Virus genome (UHGV): UHGV-1373278
DNA: 8,576 nt
Source of the DNA: a virus
Direction: 5' to 3' (one strand)
The position numbers were made by a program, and so were the translations under genes. Each line of letters opens with the position of its first letter. Position 1 is the first letter of the stretch. Below are positions 1,555 through 8,576 of this stretch, in pieces. The notes below the pieces were generated by a model that did no database searches, had not been told where the DNA came from, and was given only the letters and a program-made list of their open reading frames with translations.

Positions 1555-1616
1555 AACTCGCACAATAAAGAACGTGCAGTGTAGGTAATACTGCACGTTT
1601 GTACCATTCGTGGTAC
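1555..1616 (-). terminator. Two tandem hairpins downstream of the small regulator gene (- strand terminator candidate)
   Basis: Hairpin 1: GTACCA (1601-1606) / TGGTAC (1611-1616) with loop TTCG. Hairpin 2: 10-bp stem AACGTGCAGT (1571-1580) / ACTGCACGTT (1590-1599) with a 9-nt loop. On the - strand, hairpin 2 is followed by CUUUAUUGUG. Confidence 0.45.
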
Positions 1617-1799
1617 TTAATCCTTTTGTTTGGCAGACATGAGATCTTCTGCTGCATCTTTAGAGTAGTTATCAATCAGATAACCTAAAATCTCTGTCCA
1701 TGTAATTGTTTTTCCTAGTTTTACACTGGCATTTATAGCCAGTCGTTCTAGTTTCATTTTTCTTTCTTCCGTCACGTTATAAGTCGTGCGCTTTGCCAT
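1617..1799 (-). CDS. Small DNA-binding regulator candidate (60 aa, ribbon-helix-helix-like)
   Basis: ATG at 1799-1797. N-terminal pattern KRTTYNVTEERKMKLERLA (beta strand then helix) with a G-K-T helix cap fits an RHH (Arc/CopG-like) fold. Divergent from gII across a repeat-rich intergenic region, the position expected for a phage repressor. Confidence 0.5.
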   Translation of the reverse strand: MAKRTTYNVTEERKMKLERLAINASVKLGKTITWTEILGYLIDNYSKDAAEDLMSAKQKD

Positions 1800-1839
1800 T
1801 TTTTACGCTCGTTCAATGCAATATTTGAAGTGAGTATAC

Positions 1840-1968
1840 ATGCTCATGAACTCATATCATCCAAGCCTCTTGAACTCACTAGCTCACTGGTGTAATGTTA
1901 AAACACTAATGAACTACTGAACTCATGTGTTAGTAAGTCGTCATTTTTGCAATTTTGAGGATTTATTC
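1840..1968 (+). promoter_or_regulatory. gII upstream control region: iterated TGAACT(C/A)(A/C) repeats and a candidate sigma70 promoter; possible (+) origin region
   Basis: Four direct copies of TGAACTCA-like octamers at 1847-1854, 1871-1878, 1911-1918 and 1919-1926. Candidate -35 TTGAAC (1870-1875), 17-nt spacer, -10 TAATGT (1893-1898). GAGG (1957-1960) lies 8 nt before the GTG at 1969. Several short dyad symmetries (TCATGA, TGAGT/ACTCA) at 1830-1855. Confidence 0.4.
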
Positions 1969-3021
1969 GTGATCGATTGGCTTACCGGGATTTTCCCTTG
2001 CACACACAAACCGCTTCCGGCGGGGAGTGTTGTCAGCGTTGATGCTGACGGTGCAATTGAGTGGGAAACCGTTAAGCGACTGACTGTTCGCGGTTCGCAT
2101 GAAGCAACGATGAAAGTACGATCGATAGGATCTAATGGCGAAGGTAAAGCGACACATTTGTACATTGATGGTAATCCTTCCAAGTTTCTGCAGGGGCATT
2201 CTGTTGTTGGGTCGGATGATATACAAGGGCTCATGTTGACGGTCTATGCCAGGATTTTATCCTTATTGAATATTCCTCATGATTTAGCGTCTTATAAAGC
2301 CGTTATGGCAGGTCAGTATAAAATTTCACGTGTTGACATTAATTACATGTATTCATTATCTACGCTGGAAAATGTCAGATCATGGCTTTATGCCGCCGAA
2401 TTTAAAGCTAAAACACGCCATGGTCGCGCATGTGGGAAAGGCGGTACAGTTTATTTAGGTAAAAACTCCCGTCGATGGAGTCTGAAATTTTATTCAAAAT
2501 ATGATGAACACGTTTCTGGTAAAAAAGGGCACCAGATAGCCGAAGAGTTTGTACGAGCCGGGTTACTGGACTGGACGAAAGATAAATTACGTATTGAATT
2601 AACATTAAGAACAACTGAGCTTATTGATTTAAATTTAACGCTTGGCGCTAACTGGAATATGAAAACACCACGTCAATTATTCTCTGAATATGTAGGGAGA
2701 ATAGAAATGAATCAGAATGCTATTTTAAGTGATGAAAAAATAACGAAACTGCCAAGAAAAATACAGTCAACTTATTTACTTTGGAAACAAGGGGCTAACA
2801 TGAAAGAAATGTTACCTCATAACACTTTTTATCGCCATAGAAGAGAATTGCTTTCGTTCGGTATCGATATTAATTTCTATTGTGATTCACCAGACTCTAA
2901 TAACGTTGTTCCGCTAATAAGAACGCTGGAAGCCAAGCCAGCGGAAATCCCCTTATGGATTTATGAGAAAGGTTTTATTTTCGATTACAACCGTATTTCG
3001 CACGCCAGTAGCTGGCATTAA
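1969..3021 (+). CDS. II: Replication initiation protein pII (rolling-circle nickase), Ff gene II homolog
   Basis: No in-frame ATG near the 5' end, so a GTG start is inferred. GTG at 1969 has a GAGG RBS 8 nt upstream and gives MIDWLTG..., like Ff pII MIDMLVL... The alternative GTG at 1927 lacks an RBS. C-terminal region contains NVVPLIR, as in Ff pII (NVVPLVR). First gene in the Ff order. Confidence 0.8.
   Translation: MIDWLTGIFPCTHKPLPAGSVVSVDADGAIEWETVKRLTVRGSHEATMKVRSIGSNGEGKATHLYIDGNPSKFLQGHSVVGSDDIQGLMLTVYARILSLLNIPHDLASYKAVMAGQYKISRVDINYMYSLSTLENVRSWLYAAEFKAKTRHGRACGKGGTVYLGKNSRRWSLKFYSKYDEHVSGKKGHQIAEEFVRAGLLDWTKDKLRIELTLRTTELIDLNLTLGANWNMKTPRQLFSEYVGRIEMNQNAILSDEKITKLPRKIQSTYLLWKQGANMKEMLPHNTFYRHRRELLSFGIDINFYCDSPDSNNVVPLIRTLEAKPAEIPLWIYEKGFIFDYNRISHASSWH
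2707..3021 (+). CDS. X: pX, in-frame internal translation product of gene II (104 aa)
   Basis: In-frame ATG at 2707 preceded by AGGGAGA (2694-2700) with a 6-nt spacer. Product starts MNQNAILSDE, like Ff pX MNIYDDSAVL. An alternative in-frame ATG at about 2660 (MKTPRQ...) is possible. Confidence 0.55.
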   Translation: MNQNAILSDEKITKLPRKIQSTYLLWKQGANMKEMLPHNTFYRHRRELLSFGIDINFYCDSPDSNNVVPLIRTLEAKPAEIPLWIYEKGFIFDYNRISHASSWH

Positions 3022-3032
3022 AGGAAAGTAAT

Positions 3033-3350
3033 ATGTCTAATTATGGTCTTTTCGTTAAGGGTAAAATGTTGGGAGCCCGCCAACGTAATAAAGTTAATGG
3101 TCAGGGCTATTATAATGAAATTGGTATTGGCCTTGAAATACCTGATGGTTTTGGTGGTACAAAGCAGGATCAAATTATTATTCGAGTTTCTCAGGCTCTC
3201 GTTAACGCAGGTCTAATGAACCAGGCGAATGCTTTCATTGGGAAATTAGTTCAAATTCCTGTCTATGTCCGTGCGTGGTCAATGGAGGGTAGGGAAGGTG
3301 TAACTTATAATGTTTCTTCCGATGGTGGCATCGCAGAGATCAAAGGTTAA
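3033..3350 (+). CDS. V: Putative ssDNA-binding protein at the gene V position (105 aa; not recognisably Ff pV-like)
   Basis: ATG at 3033 with AGGA RBS (3022-3025) immediately after the gII stop. Size and position match gene V, but the sequence is Gly-rich and basic and does not match Ff/IKe pV from memory. Confidence 0.6.
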   Translation: MSNYGLFVKGKMLGARQRNKVNGQGYYNEIGIGLEIPDGFGGTKQDQIIIRVSQALVNAGLMNQANAFIGKLVQIPVYVRAWSMEGREGVTYNVSSDGGIAEIKG

Positions 3351-3352
3351 AT

Positions 3353-3439
3353 ATGGACGATGTTATTCAAATTTTGATAGCGTCTGGCATCGTTATTTCT
3401 TTTGGCCTCGGCGCGATTACTGCGGGGGTCTTTCGTTAA
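3353..3439 (+). CDS. VII: Minor coat protein pVII (28 aa)
   Basis: ATG at 3353. Small hydrophobic protein MDDVIQILIASGIVISFGLGAITAGVFR resembles Ff pVII (...ALGIIAGGQR). Stop TAA at 3437-3439 overlaps the next start (TAATG). Confidence 0.6.
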   Translation: MDDVIQILIASGIVISFGLGAITAGVFR

Positions 3440-3553: not shown

Positions 3554-3796
3554 ATGAAAATTCTGTCTACTGTTAAATATAAAATTGCTCTGGCTTCAAC
3601 TGCGCTTTTTATTTCTGCAAGTTCTTTTGCGGCTGAAGGCGCTACAGGTGGTACTGATTATGCAGGTCAGGCAATGGATGCTTTGTTGACTCAGGCAAAT
3701 GATCTCATTGGTAAAGTATGGCCTGTTGTTGTTGCTGTGGTTGGCGCTGGGCTTGCCATTCGTATTTTCAAAAAATTCTCTTCAAAAGCGGTTTGA
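3554..3796 (+). CDS. VIII: Major coat protein pVIII precursor (80 aa; mature about 54 aa)
   Basis: GGAG RBS 8 nt upstream. Signal peptide [26 protein letters not shown], then mature AEGATGG... with a hydrophobic core and basic C-terminus [11 protein letters not shown], close to Ff/IKe pVIII (...KLFKKFTSKAS). Confidence 0.9.
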
Positions 3797-3842: not shown

Positions 3843-5165
3843 ATGAGAAGGAAAATATTAATTCTTTCCGCTGTCCTCATTTCTCCTTTTTCACATGCTG
3901 AGTCATGGGAAAGCATTACTAAATCCACTTATCAAAGTTCTGCCTACGCTGAAAGTAAGCAAATAACCAATCAGGATGGCTCTAAGATAACGGTTTACTA
4001 TATTGATGCTGCTATGCAGGCCTCCGCTTGTCAGGGTGCTAAATCCAGTGCTCAGAGTGTATTTACTCGGATTAAACCAACTTATGAGGGTATCTGGCCT
4101 GATTCTGAATTCCGTCTTGTTTTTACTGGCGATTGTACTTACAGCGATTCACCAGGGCAGAAGGATAAATATTGGTCTTTAACGGCTTATATTGTTGGTA
4201 ATATTCAGCGTTCTGTTCCTGATGAAAAACCTACTGACCCGACACCAGAAGAAATTTGTGAAGCGAAGCCGCCAGAAGAAGGTGTATTTAATAATGTTGA
4301 TTCATATGATGGTGGTCGCTATATCTACTATAACGGCTGTGAATATGAGGCTACTGGTGTCATTGTTTGTCAGGGTGATGGTACTGTTTGCGCTGCAACA
4401 TGGAAGCCTACAGGTGCTGTAGCTGACCCCTCTGATAAACCCTCAACCCCCCAAAATGGTGGTGGTGAGTCTGGCGGTGGTGAGTCCAGCGGTGGTGAGT
4501 CCAGCGGTGGTGAGTCTGGCGGTGGTGAGTCCGGCGGTGGTGAGTCCGGTGGTGGTGAGTCCGGCGGTGGTGAGTCTGGCGGTGGTGAGTCCGGTGGCGG
4601 TAGTTCTGGCGGTAGTTCTGGCGGTGGCTCTAGTGGTTCCAGTCTTTCTAAAGGTGATATTCAGTCTGCGATCGAAGGTGCTTCACCCAAAATAGCCAGC
4701 GATATTCATGATAAATTAACGGAGAAAGACACTTCATCAGATGATAAAAAAAATGCCGATGAACAAACCAGGAATAATATAAATCGTCTTGACGATTCCA
4801 TTAACAATCTTACGCGGGGGGCTGGCCGTTTTGCTGACCCTTCAGGTGGTGATTCTCGTTATGGAAAGGGCGACTCTGAATTAGATGGCGCTTCTACTTT
4901 GGCTGATTCTGAATTGGGAATTGAAAAGGATTCTCACGGTGCTTTATGGGAAGCGTTTTTAAATAAAGGTGCTATGCTGCCTAATTTACCCAATGGTAAC
5001 GGCTGCTCTGATTTTATTATTTTTCCCGGAGAGGTTTATCAGATTGATATTGGTTGCGATAAATTACTGACTATTAAAGATGTTCTTTCATGGGTTTTTT
5101 ATTGCCTTACGTTCTGGTATGTCTTTACTTCTTTAACTTCATTGCTTCGCAAAGGGGGTGAGTGA
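3843..5165 (+). CDS. III: Minor coat / adsorption protein pIII (440 aa)
   Basis: ATG at 3843 with signal peptide [19 protein letters not shown]. Cys motif [25 protein letters not shown] resembles the Ff N1 TolA-binding motif (CLWNATGVVVCTGDETQCYGTWVP). GGGES-repeat linker follows. C-terminal ...[40 protein letters not shown] resembles the Ff pIII C-terminus. The 3699 ORF-track start is an out-of-context upstream extension overlapping gVIII. Confidence 0.9.
4458..4640 (+). repeat. Tandem 15-bp in-frame repeat array encoding the (G-G-E-S-G/S) linker of pIII
   Basis: Nine near-identical 15-bp units GGTGGTGAGTC(T/C)(G/A)GC(G/T) from about 4461 to 4595, then degenerate Gly/Ser codons to about 4640. 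Confidence 0.85.
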
Positions 5166-5506
5166 TGCCTTTATTATTAGGTATTCCTGCATTGTTGCGT
5201 TTTCTTATTGGTCTTGTTCCTTTGTTTATTGGCTATGTGGCGAGTTTTTTAGCTCGACTTGCTACCAGAACAGGATTAATCGCCTTTGCATTGGTCGCAT
5301 TAATTACAACAACTGTTACGCTTTTAATGCAGTACCTTGCTGAGGTCATGTATAACGGTTTACCTGCTGATTTCTCCCATTTAATGGCGTCTGTATTGCC
5401 TGACCATTTTCAGGCGTGTGTTAACGTTATTATGGTTACTCGTATCAGTGTTTTTGTTTTCGATTTAAAACAAAAGTTTCTTGATTATGCAAACAGGGTG
5501 ATTTAA
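5165..5506 (+). CDS. VI: Minor coat protein pVI (113 aa)
   Basis: ATG at 5165 overlapping the gIII stop TGA (ATGA). [24 protein letters not shown]... resembles Ff pVI (MPVLLGIPLLLRFLGFLLVTLFGY...). C-terminal FVFDLKQKF matches Ff FIFDVKQKI. Confidence 0.9.
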   Translation: MPLLLGIPALLRFLIGLVPLFIGYVASFLARLATRTGLIAFALVALITTTVTLLMQYLAEVMYNGLPADFSHLMASVLPDHFQACVNVIMVTRISVFVFDLKQKFLDYANRVI

Positions 5507-6601
5507 ATGGCGGTTTATGTAGTAACAGGCAAATTAGGCTCAGGCAAGACACTTGTTAGTGTTTCCAGAATACAGGAAAGACTTGCTAAGGGTTGTCCTG
5601 TTGCCACTAATCTTGATCTTAAATTGCATAATATGCCTATGGTTGGGCGTTATGCGAAAAAAACGCGCGTTATTCGCATTCCTGACAAGCCTTCATTAAA
5701 TGATTTACTTGCTATTGGTATTGGGAATACATCTTACGATGAATCCCGTAATGGCCTCCTTGTACTTGATGAATGTGGTACTTGGTTTAATTCCCGCTCA
5801 TGGGGTGATAAAGACAGACAACCTGTTATTGACTGGTTTTTACATGCCAGAAAATTAGGCTGGGATATTATATTTTTGATTCAGGATATTTCGATAATGG
5901 ATAAGCAAGCTCGTCTGGCGCTTGCTGAGCATGTTGTTTATTGTCGCCGTTCAGATAAATTAAACATTCCTTTTGTTGGCTCCATTATGAATTTGGTTTC
6001 AGGGGCGAGATTTTCTTTACCAAAGGTACACTTTGGCATTGTCAAATATGGTGATAATGTTAATTCAATCACTGTTGATAAATGGATATATACAGGAAAA
6101 TCTCTTTATTCTGCTTACAATACCAAACAAGCGTTCACAGATAATTATCCTCATGGCGCATTTTCGCTTTTGCCACCATTTATCACGCACGGTCAATTTT
6201 CTGTTCACAGAGGATTTAATTATTATATGCGCCTCACTAAAATTTATTTTCGCAAATCGAACCGTCTTATATTAATGCTTTCTTTTTTGGCGCTGGGGCT
6301 TGCGTTTGGTTTCTGGCTCCAGTCTGGAAAGAATGTTGATGAAATCTCAGCTATTAAATCTGCTTATGCTGAACAGGCGAGGGCGGTAACGCCTGATTCG
6401 TCCAGTAACTTACCCCGACTTTCTATTAATTCTTTTTCACAACTTGGCTTTGACGTTTCCGTTACGTTTGTTGATGCTAAAGGTATGAAATATCAGTATT
6501 TTGATTTGATTAAAGATGGTTATTCCGTTGATATTAAAGATGCCTGTCGTGTTGTTATTAGAAAAGGCCGTTATTTACAGACTGTTACCTGTCAGGAGTA
6601 A
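5507..6601 (+). CDS. I: Assembly ATPase pI (Zot-like, 364 aa)
   Basis: ATG at 5507 immediately after the gVI stop. N-terminus MAVYVVTGKLGSGKTLVSV (Walker A) is nearly identical to Ff pI MAVYFVTGKLGSGKTLVSV. Extensive similarity continues (LLVLDECGTWFN, IIDWFLHARKLGWDIIFL). Confidence 0.9.
   Translation: MAVYVVTGKLGSGKTLVSVSRIQERLAKGCPVATNLDLKLHNMPMVGRYAKKTRVIRIPDKPSLNDLLAIGIGNTSYDESRNGLLVLDECGTWFNSRSWGDKDRQPVIDWFLHARKLGWDIIFLIQDISIMDKQARLALAEHVVYCRRSDKLNIPFVGSIMNLVSGARFSLPKVHFGIVKYGDNVNSITVDKWIYTGKSLYSAYNTKQAFTDNYPHGAFSLLPPFITHGQFSVHRGFNYYMRLTKIYFRKSNRLILMLSFLALGLAFGFWLQSGKNVDEISAIKSAYAEQARAVTPDSSSNLPRLSINSFSQLGFDVSVTFVDAKGMKYQYFDLIKDGYSVDIKDACRVVIRKGRYLQTVTCQE
6227..6601 (+). CDS. XI: pXI, in-frame internal translation product of gene I (124 aa)
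   Basis: In-frame ATG at residue 241 of pI (MRLTKIYFRKSN...), the same position and context as Ff pXI (Met241, MKLTKIYLKKF...), followed by a TM segment. Purine-rich AGAGGA lies about 12 nt upstream. Confidence 0.5.
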   Translation: MRLTKIYFRKSNRLILMLSFLALGLAFGFWLQSGKNVDEISAIKSAYAEQARAVTPDSSSNLPRLSINSFSQLGFDVSVTFVDAKGMKYQYFDLIKDGYSVDIKDACRVVIRKGRYLQTVTCQE

Positions 6602-6608
6602 TATTATT

Positions 6609-7874
6609 ATGCGCTCTGTTATTGTTGCTTTTTTATTTGCCTGTTCATTCTGCGTTTCTGCTGAAACTGTTAATTTAAATAATTCATCTGTTCGCTCATT
6701 TGTTCAGTGGTATTCTTCAAAAACTGGCAAGCCTGTTATTGTTAATCCTGATATTAAAGGAAACGTAACCGTATTTAATGCTGATGTTAATCCAGCAAAT
6801 ATTGATGATTTCTTTAAGTCTGTTCTGAATGCTAACGGTTTTGTCATGCTTTCTGGCAATCCTGCGGTAGTCTCTTTGCCGTCTAAATTACCTTCACAGA
6901 TGGTTTCGGATTCCGATGATTCTGATAACCAGTCTTATGATACTTTTCCTTCTGAGCCATCTTACCAGCCAGTACCTGTGGCGCTTACGGTCAGAAATTT
7001 TAAGCTGACAAAAGTTAGATCGTCCGATGTTCAGCAACTGATTAAAATTTATCTTGATTCTAATGGTGGTGGTAATGTCGTGGATTATCCAGGCAATAAC
7101 TCGCTGATTGTTTCTGCGCCTGACGAGCTGCTGCCGGTTCTGTCCGATTTTATCAATTCTGTGGATGTTGCCCGCGATCAGGTTCTCATTCAGTCGCTGA
7201 TGTTTGAAACCAGCTTGTCTGATGGCGTTGATTTATCGTTTGCGGCAGGTTCTGCATCCGGTCATAAGGTTGCGGGGGGCTTTAATACTTCTGCACTGGG
7301 TAGCGCTCTTTCTACGGCGGGCGGTTCTTTTGGTATTTTTGATGGTAACGTGTTGGCGCTGTCTCTGCGTGCTGTCCAGAGTAATTCACGCTCTAAGGTG
7401 ATTTCAACGCCGCGTATTCTTACTCAGTCTGGTCAGACTGGTTACATTTCCGTAGGTAAGAATGTGCCGTTTATCACCGGAAAGGTAACGGGCGAATCTG
7501 CCGGGGTAAATAATCCGTTTCAGACTATCGAGCGTCATGATGTTGGCGTTTCTCTCAAGGTAACGCCTGTTGTCATGGGTAACGGGCAACTAGTTCTGAC
7601 TATCGACACTCGCGCTGATTCAATCAGCAATGATGATCAGGCATCCGATATTATTACTAATCAGCGCCAGATTCAGACGACAGTCCAGATTAAGGATGGT
7701 CAGACGTTGTTATTGGGGGGGCTTATCGATTCATCGTTCAGCAATGCCGAGCGTTCAGTTCCAGTTATAAGTAAAATTCCTCTTATAGGCTGGATTTTCA
7801 GTAGCAAGGCAGACAGCAATGAACAGCGTATTATGTATATTTTGCTTACAGCACATATCATTCGTCCACTTTGA
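6609..7874 (+). CDS. IV: Outer-membrane secretin pIV (421 aa)
   Basis: ATG at 6609 with AGGAG (6594-6598) about 10 nt upstream. Signal peptide MRSVIVAFLFACSFCVSA. Strong similarity to Ff pIV throughout (VRSFVQWYSS..., NVPFITGKVTGESAGVNNPFQTIERHDVG..., DGQTLLLGGL..., SKIPLIGW-FSS). The 6516 ORF-track start is an upstream extension inside gI. Confidence 0.9.
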   Translation: MRSVIVAFLFACSFCVSAETVNLNNSSVRSFVQWYSSKTGKPVIVNPDIKGNVTVFNADVNPANIDDFFKSVLNANGFVMLSGNPAVVSLPSKLPSQMVSDSDDSDNQSYDTFPSEPSYQPVPVALTVRNFKLTKVRSSDVQQLIKIYLDSNGGGNVVDYPGNNSLIVSAPDELLPVLSDFINSVDVARDQVLIQSLMFETSLSDGVDLSFAAGSASGHKVAGGFNTSALGSALSTAGGSFGIFDGNVLALSLRAVQSNSRSKVISTPRILTQSGQTGYISVGKNVPFITGKVTGESAGVNNPFQTIERHDVGVSLKVTPVVMGNGQLVLTIDTRADSISNDDQASDIITNQRQIQTTVQIKDGQTLLLGGLIDSSFSNAERSVPVISKIPLIGWIFSSKADSNEQRIMYILLTAHIIRPL

Positions 7875-7943: not shown

Positions 7944-8252
7944 ATGGATTCTTATGGGATTTTATCTGCTCTGGCAGAACGAACGATTACAGCGGAAGAA
8001 GCAAAAACAATGACACTTGCAGCCAGAAGTTCTTCGGCTCAGGTAAATGAAGCATCACTTGCTCTGTTACTGATTGATAATACTCTGGATGCGATCAAAG
8101 CAGCTGCCAGTGAAGGGAAAGGATACACTTTACTTCCTTCTTATGAGATTTCTGTAAAAGCCATTGATTTAGCAGAAGAATTTTTAAGGAAACAATGCGG
8201 CTATGTTATTGATAACCAGAATGGCGTAAGGACGGTCTATTGGTTTATATGA
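7944..8252 (+). CDS. Hypothetical protein (102 aa), accessory ORF downstream of gIV
   Basis: ATG at 7944 with a weak GGGG(T) SD-like element. Ala/Leu-rich, predicted largely helical, no signal peptide. No recognisable homology from memory. Followed by a structured region and a T7 run (8319-8325). Confidence 0.45.
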   Translation: MDSYGILSALAERTITAEEAKTMTLAARSSSAQVNEASLALLLIDNTLDAIKAAASEGKGYTLLPSYEISVKAIDLAEEFLRKQCGYVIDNQNGVRTVYWFI

Positions 8253-8369
8253 TAACCCCGGACAATGACAAAACTTGCTTTTGTTAGTGTCAGGGGTTGG
8301 CCAAGCCGAACAATTCTGTTTTTTTAGCGTTATTGCTGATTCGGCGCGGCAGCATTACGAGGAGATAAA

Positions 8370-8576
8370 ATGCAATTTTTCACATCCAGCGATACTGTAA
8401 TGTTATGTGCGAAGACCTGCGATCGCTGTGGTCGCCATGCGAAGACGGTGGTAGATGACATTGAGTTCAATGAGTTTCTGTCTGTTAATCACTTAGCTGG
8501 ATACGGTTCAATTTTTGGTGACAGTAATCGCTTAAAACTGGATTTATGCCAACATTGCCTGAAAGACGTCCTGGGC
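8370..8576 (+). CDS. Cys-rich (putative zinc-ribbon) hypothetical protein, 5' partial; continues beyond the window
   Basis: ATG at 8370 with strong GAGGAG RBS (8359-8364). Frame open for 69 codons to the window end. Contains C-x3-C-x2-C (CAKTCDRCG) and C-x2-C (CQHC) motifs. Missing from the ORF track because no stop falls in the window. Confidence 0.5.
   Translation, partial: MQFFTSSDTVMLCAKTCDRCGRHAKTVVDDIEFNEFLSVNHLAGYGSIFGDSNRLKLDLCQHCLKDVLG

Follow-up and report, generated by a model that had tools for sequence, protein, structure and literature searches.

The sequence UHGV-1373278 (8,576 nucleotides, referred to here in its full length as the window) is that of an Escherichia coli filamentous prophage of the UPphi type, ~99% identical copies of which, often in tandem, are present in 47 complete E. 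coli genomes. The start of its replication gene, gII, and that of a gene specifying a 60-amino acid protein on the other strand face each other across an intergenic region of 169 nt (1800-1968). This region contains a set of repeated octets, and we present an analysis indicating that these are most probably operator boxes of the 60-amino acid protein, which would thereby repress gII. Gene gII opens with a GTG codon at 1969 and runs on the plus strand to 3021; its product, pII (350 aa), contains the Pfam domains Phage_CRI (4.7e-71) and G2P_X_C (2.3e-29). Together with the Shine-Dalgarno sequence (GAGG, 1958-1961) the putatively regulated unit comprises 1958..3021, and the start codon agrees with the RefSeq annotation of an E. 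coli prophage with 99.4% identity over 90% of the window. The small gene is located on the minus strand (1617..1799). Its product (MAKRTTYNVTEERKMKLERLAINASVKLGKTITWTEILGYLIDNYSKDAAEDLMSAKQKD), hereafter the regulator, is a member of phrog_2503, annotated as "unknown function"; the protein's family is small, with 70 representatives among 1.84 billion proteins.

The initial annotation described four repeats of TGAACT(C/A)(A/C) within 80 bp, and this was confirmed: TGAACTCA is found at 1847-1854, 1871-1878 and 1918-1925, and TGAACTAC at 1910-1917, the total span being 79 bp. TGAACTMM occurs seven times in the whole window against an expectation of 1.16, a count reached in none of 200 shuffles, while an exact 8-mer of any sequence was present three times within the intergenic region in 14 of 3000 dinucleotide shuffles. 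Since a de novo 8-mer search with one mismatch allowed gives weaker support (10/100 shuffles), the evidence from this single sequence is only moderate; that from comparison with relatives is strong. Each site proved to be longer than first noted, as it is made up of 8-bp units, two or three in number, that follow one another head to tail and in register. Putative operator O1 (1839..1854) consists of CATGCTCA and TGAACTCA, O2 (1871..1886) of TGAACTCA and CTAGCTCA, and O3 (1910..1933) of TGAACTAC, TGAACTCA and TGTGTTAG. Each of these units is a pseudo-palindrome of 8 bp, TGA-AC-TCA (TGA-nn-TCA), which would also function in inverted form as TGAGTTCA and which suits a two-fold symmetric dimer. 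The sole other exact TGAACTCA of the window, on the minus strand at 8462-8469 beside a partial copy (TGAGTTCAATGAGTTT), lies inside an open reading frame (ORF) starting at ~8371, after gIV, and is probably due to chance.

O2 overlaps the -35 element and spacer of a candidate gII promoter (1870..1898, plus strand), which is composed of TTGAAC (1870-1875), a 17-nt spacer and TAATGT (1893-1898), and O3 corresponds to ~+5 to +28 of the predicted gII transcript. This promoter had already been proposed in the initial annotation, and its hexamers, spacing and position stand, TTGAAC being invariant and followed 17-18 nt downstream by a TAnnnT hexamer in all eight non-redundant loci compared. A candidate promoter for the regulator is found on the opposite strand (1833..1860; -35 ATGATA at 1860-1855, 16-nt spacer, -10 TATACT at 1838-1833) and was called by a promoter scan. 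Because a -10-like hexamer (TATACT, TATAAT or TAGAAT; 1.75 bits per column) occurs at a fixed distance from O1 in 8/8 loci, O1 is placed in the spacer of this promoter. The layout is thus one of putative operators between a divergent regulator gene and a replication gene, overlapping the promoter of the latter, with both promoters assigned by consensus match. A further observation in this region is a 23-nt direct repeat of 78% identity (1780-1802, TAAGTCGTGCGCTTTGCCATTTT; 1934-1956, TAAGTCGTCATTTTTGCAATTTT), as a result of which part of the 5' leader of gII can pair with the region where the regulator mRNA begins; this may be a chance feature or an antisense link between the two transcripts.

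In the CUS-1 prophage (L003; E. coli NU14) pII shares 86% identity with that of the window, and the regulator is a 148-aa helix-turn-helix protein unrelated to the 60-aa one. Nucleotide homology between the two prophages amounts to 92% over 1084-1627 and 80% over 1970-3357, with none between. The intergenic region of CUS-1 has no TGAACT box, cannot be aligned with that of the window, and possesses an inverted repeat of its own. Regulator and intergenic region have therefore been replaced together between conserved flanks.

Loci with the same type of regulator were recovered from Providencia (L004), Brenneria (L012), Phytobacter (L013) and Scandinavium (L014/L035), from metagenomes (L005/L006 and L009), and from bacterial genome assemblies (L007/L008 and L010). 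Their regulators are 58-98% identical and have the N-terminal stretch KR(T/A/M)TYNVTE. The Rep (replication) protein of L004-L010 is of the If1 type and matches the window pII only over 42-98 residues at 27-37% identity, and that of L014 is a Rep_trans protein. Every one of these loci has two to four exact TGAACTCA/TGAGTTCA boxes in 133-195 nt versus none or one in the other 3-8 kb; nine loci besides the window, which have three Rep types among them, keep the boxes in the same three places, sometimes in inverted form. The distance between the box starts of O1 and O2 is 24 bp in seven of the eight non-redundant loci and 25 bp in L004; in L005 and L007 the O1 box is inverted to TGAGTTCA without change of position. 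The first octet of O2 is invariant in the eight loci (2.0 bits per column), and the second is nnAGnTCA or TGAGTTCA in the relatives, O2 of L007 being a perfect 16-bp palindrome. O3 consists of one to three boxes in either orientation, 37-53 bp downstream of O2, in every locus of regulator class 1. The conserved columns of the intergenic region are the boxes, a CCTCT preceding O2, and the two promoter-like hexamers.

Phage If1 provides the converse comparison. Its pII is 84% identical to that of L009, while its regulator and those of the uninterrupted If1-like contigs L039 and L040 are 56% identical to that of the window with a diverged strand (KRTTMAIVA); no boxes were found in If1, L039 or L040. 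As judged from these sequence comparisons the boxes follow the regulator and not the Rep protein, and apparently they follow its N-terminal strand. Their persistence beside this regulator across Rep types, and their absence beside the 86%-identical pII of CUS-1, argue that they are the operators of a swappable immunity cassette. Of the options raised in the initial annotation that of repressor operators is consequently strongly supported, the boxes travelling with the 60-aa regulator over three Rep types and sitting on both candidate promoters. With regard to the If1 record itself (L001, NC_001954), the "major intergenic region" (4080-6100) holds an unannotated homologue of the regulator. Between this and gII is an IS200/IS605 element with a Y1 transposase and "ORF348", the latter being TnpB (OrfB_IS605 4.7e-33); the original junction is visible in L039 and L040. 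The gII start of If1 appears to lie 147 nt upstream of the annotated ORF320.

The same data bear on three other explanations of the boxes. The initial annotation had suggested pII-binding iterons, the region then being the (+) strand origin as upstream of Ff gene II. In Ff the origin does occupy the intergenic region before gene II, pII binds repeated elements beside the nick, and TGAACTC is one base from the TGGACTC of the Ff origin. An origin of this type should be a sequence which tracks the pII type and should offer a nick hairpin together with an inverted repeat, and the boxes do neither: they are missing from the unrelated intergenic region accompanying the CUS-1 pII and are present with two other Rep types (If1-type and Rep_trans), and as single-stranded DNA (ssDNA) 1836-1935 forms no hairpin and folds no better than shuffles (z -0.35). 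The core (+) origin of Ff (M13/f1/fd) has no match in 1840-1968, nor was its nick consensus seen at the boxes. The segment TTTGAAGTGAGT (1824-1835), which had been likened to the Ff nick region, resembles it weakly and is unconserved apart from its AGTATA hexamer (1833-1838), which reads as the minus-strand -10 hexamer TATACT. Furthermore, the origin of CTXphi is in Ig-1, beyond rstR, and not in ig-2 (PMC8265649), and the window contains a better origin candidate at 1570-1622 which tracks this pII type. We therefore regard iterons as hardly credible here. Scarcely more can be said for the third option of the initial annotation, that the boxes are at once operators for the regulator and part of the site that pII recognises. 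Nothing specific favours it, though overlapping replication and transcription signals exist in some rolling-circle replicons, and the module swaps tell against it in the same way, as three unrelated or distant Rep types would need to read one octet which the near-identical pII of CUS-1 does without.

The boxes might also be sites for a host factor, or reiterated -35-like TTGAAC hexamers, unrelated to the phage regulator. TTGAAC matches the -35 consensus at four of six positions, and gII transcription in YpfPhi responds to the host regulator RovA (PMC4266046). We consider this improbable, since prophages of the same host, CUS-1 and If1 (E. coli), are without boxes, whereas in such dissimilar hosts as Providencia, Brenneria, Phytobacter and Scandinavium the boxes invariably accompany this type of regulator. 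Inverted boxes are kept, and a -35 element would not tolerate inversion. As to host factors, no LexA box was found in the intergenic region.

The best candidate for the (+) origin is located at 1570..1622 on the plus strand, on the other side of the regulator gene and ~250 bases from the boxes. It comprises a hairpin (AACGTGCAGT-GTAGGTAAT-ACTGCACGTT), a T, and the inverted repeat GTACCA-TTCG-TGGTAC; the ssDNA fold of 1562-1628 has a z of -5.5 relative to shuffles. The M13 origin is laid out alike, with GAGTCCAC-GTTCTTTAATA-GTGGACTC, TT and GTTCCA-AAC-TGGAAC, the nick being in the first loop (PMC11765958), and in both cases 11 nt separate the end of the TAAT-A loop from the inverted repeat. The unit is identical in L011-L013. 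CUS-1 keeps it with compensatory changes in the inverted repeat (GTCTCA/TGAGAC), and phage I2-2, the gene II product of which is 57% identical to the window pII, has an origin-like unit at 2667-2712. Every locus with this type of pII has the unit (the window, L011-L013, CUS-1 and I2-2), and no match was found in the loci with If1-type pII. From these comparisons the (+) origin is probably here rather than at the boxes. The initial annotation had allowed for an origin elsewhere, for example downstream of gIV; elsewhere it probably is, but not at that end of the genome. Alternatively, or in addition, these hairpins may terminate the regulator transcript; against their being a terminator only, the T-rich tail is lost in L012/L013 with the hairpins kept, and I2-2 retains the hairpins too. 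A minus-strand GTTCTTTATTGTG (about 1562-1574) was considered as an Ff-like nick motif and dropped, being unconserved in L012 and L013. The location of the probable origin is relevant to phagemid building and to rolling-circle release from tandem prophages.

In I2-2 (L045, NC_001332) the order is origin-like unit, minus-strand regulator homologue, and gene II. The homologue (2712-2918, minus strand) is frameshifted: it reads MKKPVRTTASITTEKKK...VTWTD and then continues out of frame. Either it is a pseudogene, in a phage regarded as non-integrating, or the record contains a sequencing error.

The regulator is predicted to be a ribbon-helix-helix (RHH) DNA-binding protein. Its predicted fold is beta-alpha-alpha over about 45 residues, as in that family. 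A G-x-(S/T/N) turn between the two helices is a feature of RHH proteins; in the regulator the turn is G29-K30-T31, of which T31 is invariant in close homologues. What the sequences establish is the presence and conservation of the boxes, where they stand with respect to the promoter-like hexamers, that they accompany the regulator type as opposed to the Rep type, and this RHH-like prediction; binding, its stoichiometry, repression and autoregulation we infer. Each octet would bind one regulator dimer through a two-stranded ribbon (residues about 4-10, RTTYNVT), adjacent dimers binding cooperatively. In RHH dimers the paired N-terminal strands enter the major groove, with which the high variability of alternating strand positions in this family, and the association of different strand types with different repeats, agree indirectly. 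With the -35 element (TTGAAC) and spacer of gII blocked at O2 and the transcript start covered at O3, bound regulator would keep RNA polymerase out and so shut off gII and the genes behind it. Shut-off would limit replication and virion production and hence produce superinfection immunity, while O1, within the spacer of the regulator's own promoter, would mediate negative autoregulation at higher occupancy. The regulator gene and intergenic region would then form one exchangeable immunity cassette with the stop codon of the regulator as one border and the start codon of gII as the other.

Several points weigh against this interpretation. No significant match to a curated RHH family was obtained, the window protein has no Pfam hit, and a Foldseek search gave no match for it. 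The best match of RHH type, ParG, is sub-threshold at E 0.05-0.06: with Pfam on 48 relatives ParG matched six (best E 0.052) and RHH_3 one, and a profile search against PDB sequences returned ParG at E 0.062. Both promoters are consensus matches only; the -10 element of the window gII promoter agrees with the consensus at three of six positions, and the scan did not call this promoter (1870-1898). O3 is out of 8-bp phase with O1 and O2, and likeness to the box is poor in the pair of octets that separates O1 from O2; therefore a continuous protein coat is not supported. Among the other regulator classes only the repeats of phiAFP1 and L037 pass the shuffle test. Lastly, the regulator gene adjoins the intergenic region on the DNA, and their co-occurrence is partly simple co-inheritance. 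More than linkage is indicated, however, because the spacer of L004 has diverged beyond alignment and its boxes are still present, because the O1-O2 spacing is held, and because O1 has been inverted in place.

ParG of plasmid TP228 is a small RHH repressor of parFG, the OF operator of which consists of eight ACTC boxes of 8-bp period in direct and inverted orientation; one dimer binds per box and inversion is tolerated (PMC3130281). It is the best, though non-significant, match of the regulator family. The window box contains ACTC, the octets are short and in register with an 8-bp period within clusters, and their orientation flips between orthologous sites. These likenesses raise the alternative that the array is a ParG-like centromere, or else an activator site for the regulator's own promoter. 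We think either very unlikely. No ATPase of the ParA/ParF type occurs among the window ORFs and Pfam hits, and hence a ParF partner and a centromere role are wanting, and the regulator has no long, flexible N-terminal tail such as that by which ParG contacts ParF (PMC3130281). A box over the -35 element and spacer argues for occlusion, not activation. The window boxes form three short clusters as opposed to the one long array of ParG, and homology of the two proteins is not established.

Returning to repression of gII by the regulator, the rstR/ig-2 region of CTXphi is alike in having a regulator divergent from the replication gene, with operators in the intergenic region on the rep promoter, and in the swapping of regulator and intergenic region as an allele-specific cassette between conserved flanks. 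RstR acts allele-specifically on ig-2, resulting in immunity (PMC11509585), and the (+) origin of CTXphi likewise lies beyond the regulator gene (PMC8265649). RstR differs in being a helix-turn-helix protein, whereas the window protein, of 60 aa, is predicted to be of the RHH type and has tandem boxes of 8 bp. In CTXphi the rstA promoter is in addition subject to LexA, while the window region showed no LexA box. Among small RHH proteins, CopG represses the initiator gene of the rolling-circle plasmid pMV158 (Pcr promoter) and its own gene; the met boxes of MetJ are tandem pseudo-palindromes of 8 bp, each bound by one dimer. These belong to different protein families, box sequences and replicons, and CopG uses a single 13-bp pseudo-symmetric element unlike the window boxes. 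A small repressor acting on tandem boxes over a promoter is already well known, and on the sequence data the present locus is a repressor-operator immunity cassette of known type; in it an unannotated, predicted RHH family takes the place of the helix-turn-helix repressors hitherto reported from integrative inoviruses. The presence of an omega-like RHH ORF was remarked on earlier in Pseudomonas phage PMBT54 (PMC10534721).

The foregoing proposes a function for an unannotated family of small genes, and for the intergenic region controlling replication in UPphi/If1-type filamentous prophages, a kind often encountered in pathogenic E. coli, Salmonella and Klebsiella. It would also explain the mosaic of UPphi versus CUS-1/YpfPhi, in which the replication module is held in common and the immunity cassettes differ, and the cassette type should predict which prophages co-exist or exclude each other.

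A broader proposition, on which we are evenly divided, is that phrog_2503 is an RHH family related to ParG which provides many inoviruses of gammaproteobacteria (UPphi, If1, I2-2, Xenorhabdus and Providencia prophages, and Alteromonas phiAFP1) with an exchangeable immunity determinant. Each set of variable ribbon residues would then be matched to tandem octets of its own, and the cassette would be free to combine with at least three types of Rep. When 48 relatives are aligned, variability is highest at the alternating strand positions, which in the window are N8 and T10. The strand type of phiAFP1 is accompanied by five copies of GAGAATAC/GTATTCTC, that of L037 by the repeat TGAGGACA-TGAGGTCA, and another strand type in I2-2 by TGTATACA-CGTATACA. 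By inspection only, L042 has TGTGCACT-TGTGCAGT, and the strand type of If1 and Xenorhabdus is associated with TAAACAyTyATG; a de novo repeat test applied in the same way to each intergenic region is too weak to support the If1-like, Xenorhabdus and L042 repeats. If the proposition is true, phrog_2503 would be a natural data set for the RHH ribbon-to-DNA recognition code, and its cassettes would predict homo-immune versus hetero-immune filamentous prophages.

As in the UPphi group generally, the window combines IKe-like structural genes with a gII/gV module common to YpfPhi and CUS-1 (PMC7307601). On the plus strand gII is followed by gV (3033-3350), gVIII (3554-3796), gIII and gVI, gI (5507-6601), and gIV (6516-7874) with two small ORFs downstream. 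The minus strand carries, besides the regulator gene, those for a 140-aa membrane protein (1106-1528) and the Shedu protein SduA (163-963). The latter is a complete anti-phage defence gene carried as prophage cargo (PADLOC 5e-111; Pfam SduA_C 2.4e-25). This region varies among the otherwise ~99% identical E. coli prophages, in some of which other cargo, including a STM4504-family gene, is found instead.

Three additional non-coding elements were observed. A long forked hairpin on the plus strand at 65-160 (z -6.7) is built from two inverted dif-like sites, one arm being GGTGCGCATAA...TTATGTTGAAA and the other TTTAGCATAA...TTATGCGAACC; it is kept in CUS-1 and in loci with If1-type pII and looks like a CTXphi-style single-stranded attP for XerCD. 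An intact 28-bp dif was not found in the window. A search of the whole window against Rfam returned nothing relevant. At 1043-1100 there is a 57-bp element of three hairpins (CCGC-GAA-GCGG; GTTCGGG-GTTCAGTGACA-CCCGAAC; TTTA; CCGTGG-TTTC-CCGCGG), which is ~90-98% identical in If1, Providencia and metagenomic inoviruses, phiAFP1, and one Vibrio cholerae locus with a Rep of the unrelated Phage_GPA type. The third stem varies in sequence across loci with pairing kept, and the element is situated just 3' of the regulator gene everywhere but in the window; it had no match in CUS-1 or the sampled parts of L011-L013. As many as 438 plasmids and 706 E. coli records have copies too, and these are apparently prophage relics. 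The element may be the (-) strand origin, or the (+) origin of the If1-type pII. A complementary-strand origin of the G4 type was rejected, there being no similarity to G4-like phages and the plasmid copies having the appearance of prophage relics. The third element is the non-coding stretch at 8251-8356, following a 102-aa ORF, which is 86% identical to CUS-1 and 73% to L009 between unrelated flanking genes; it too may be a cis element, acting for instance in packaging or as a (-) origin.
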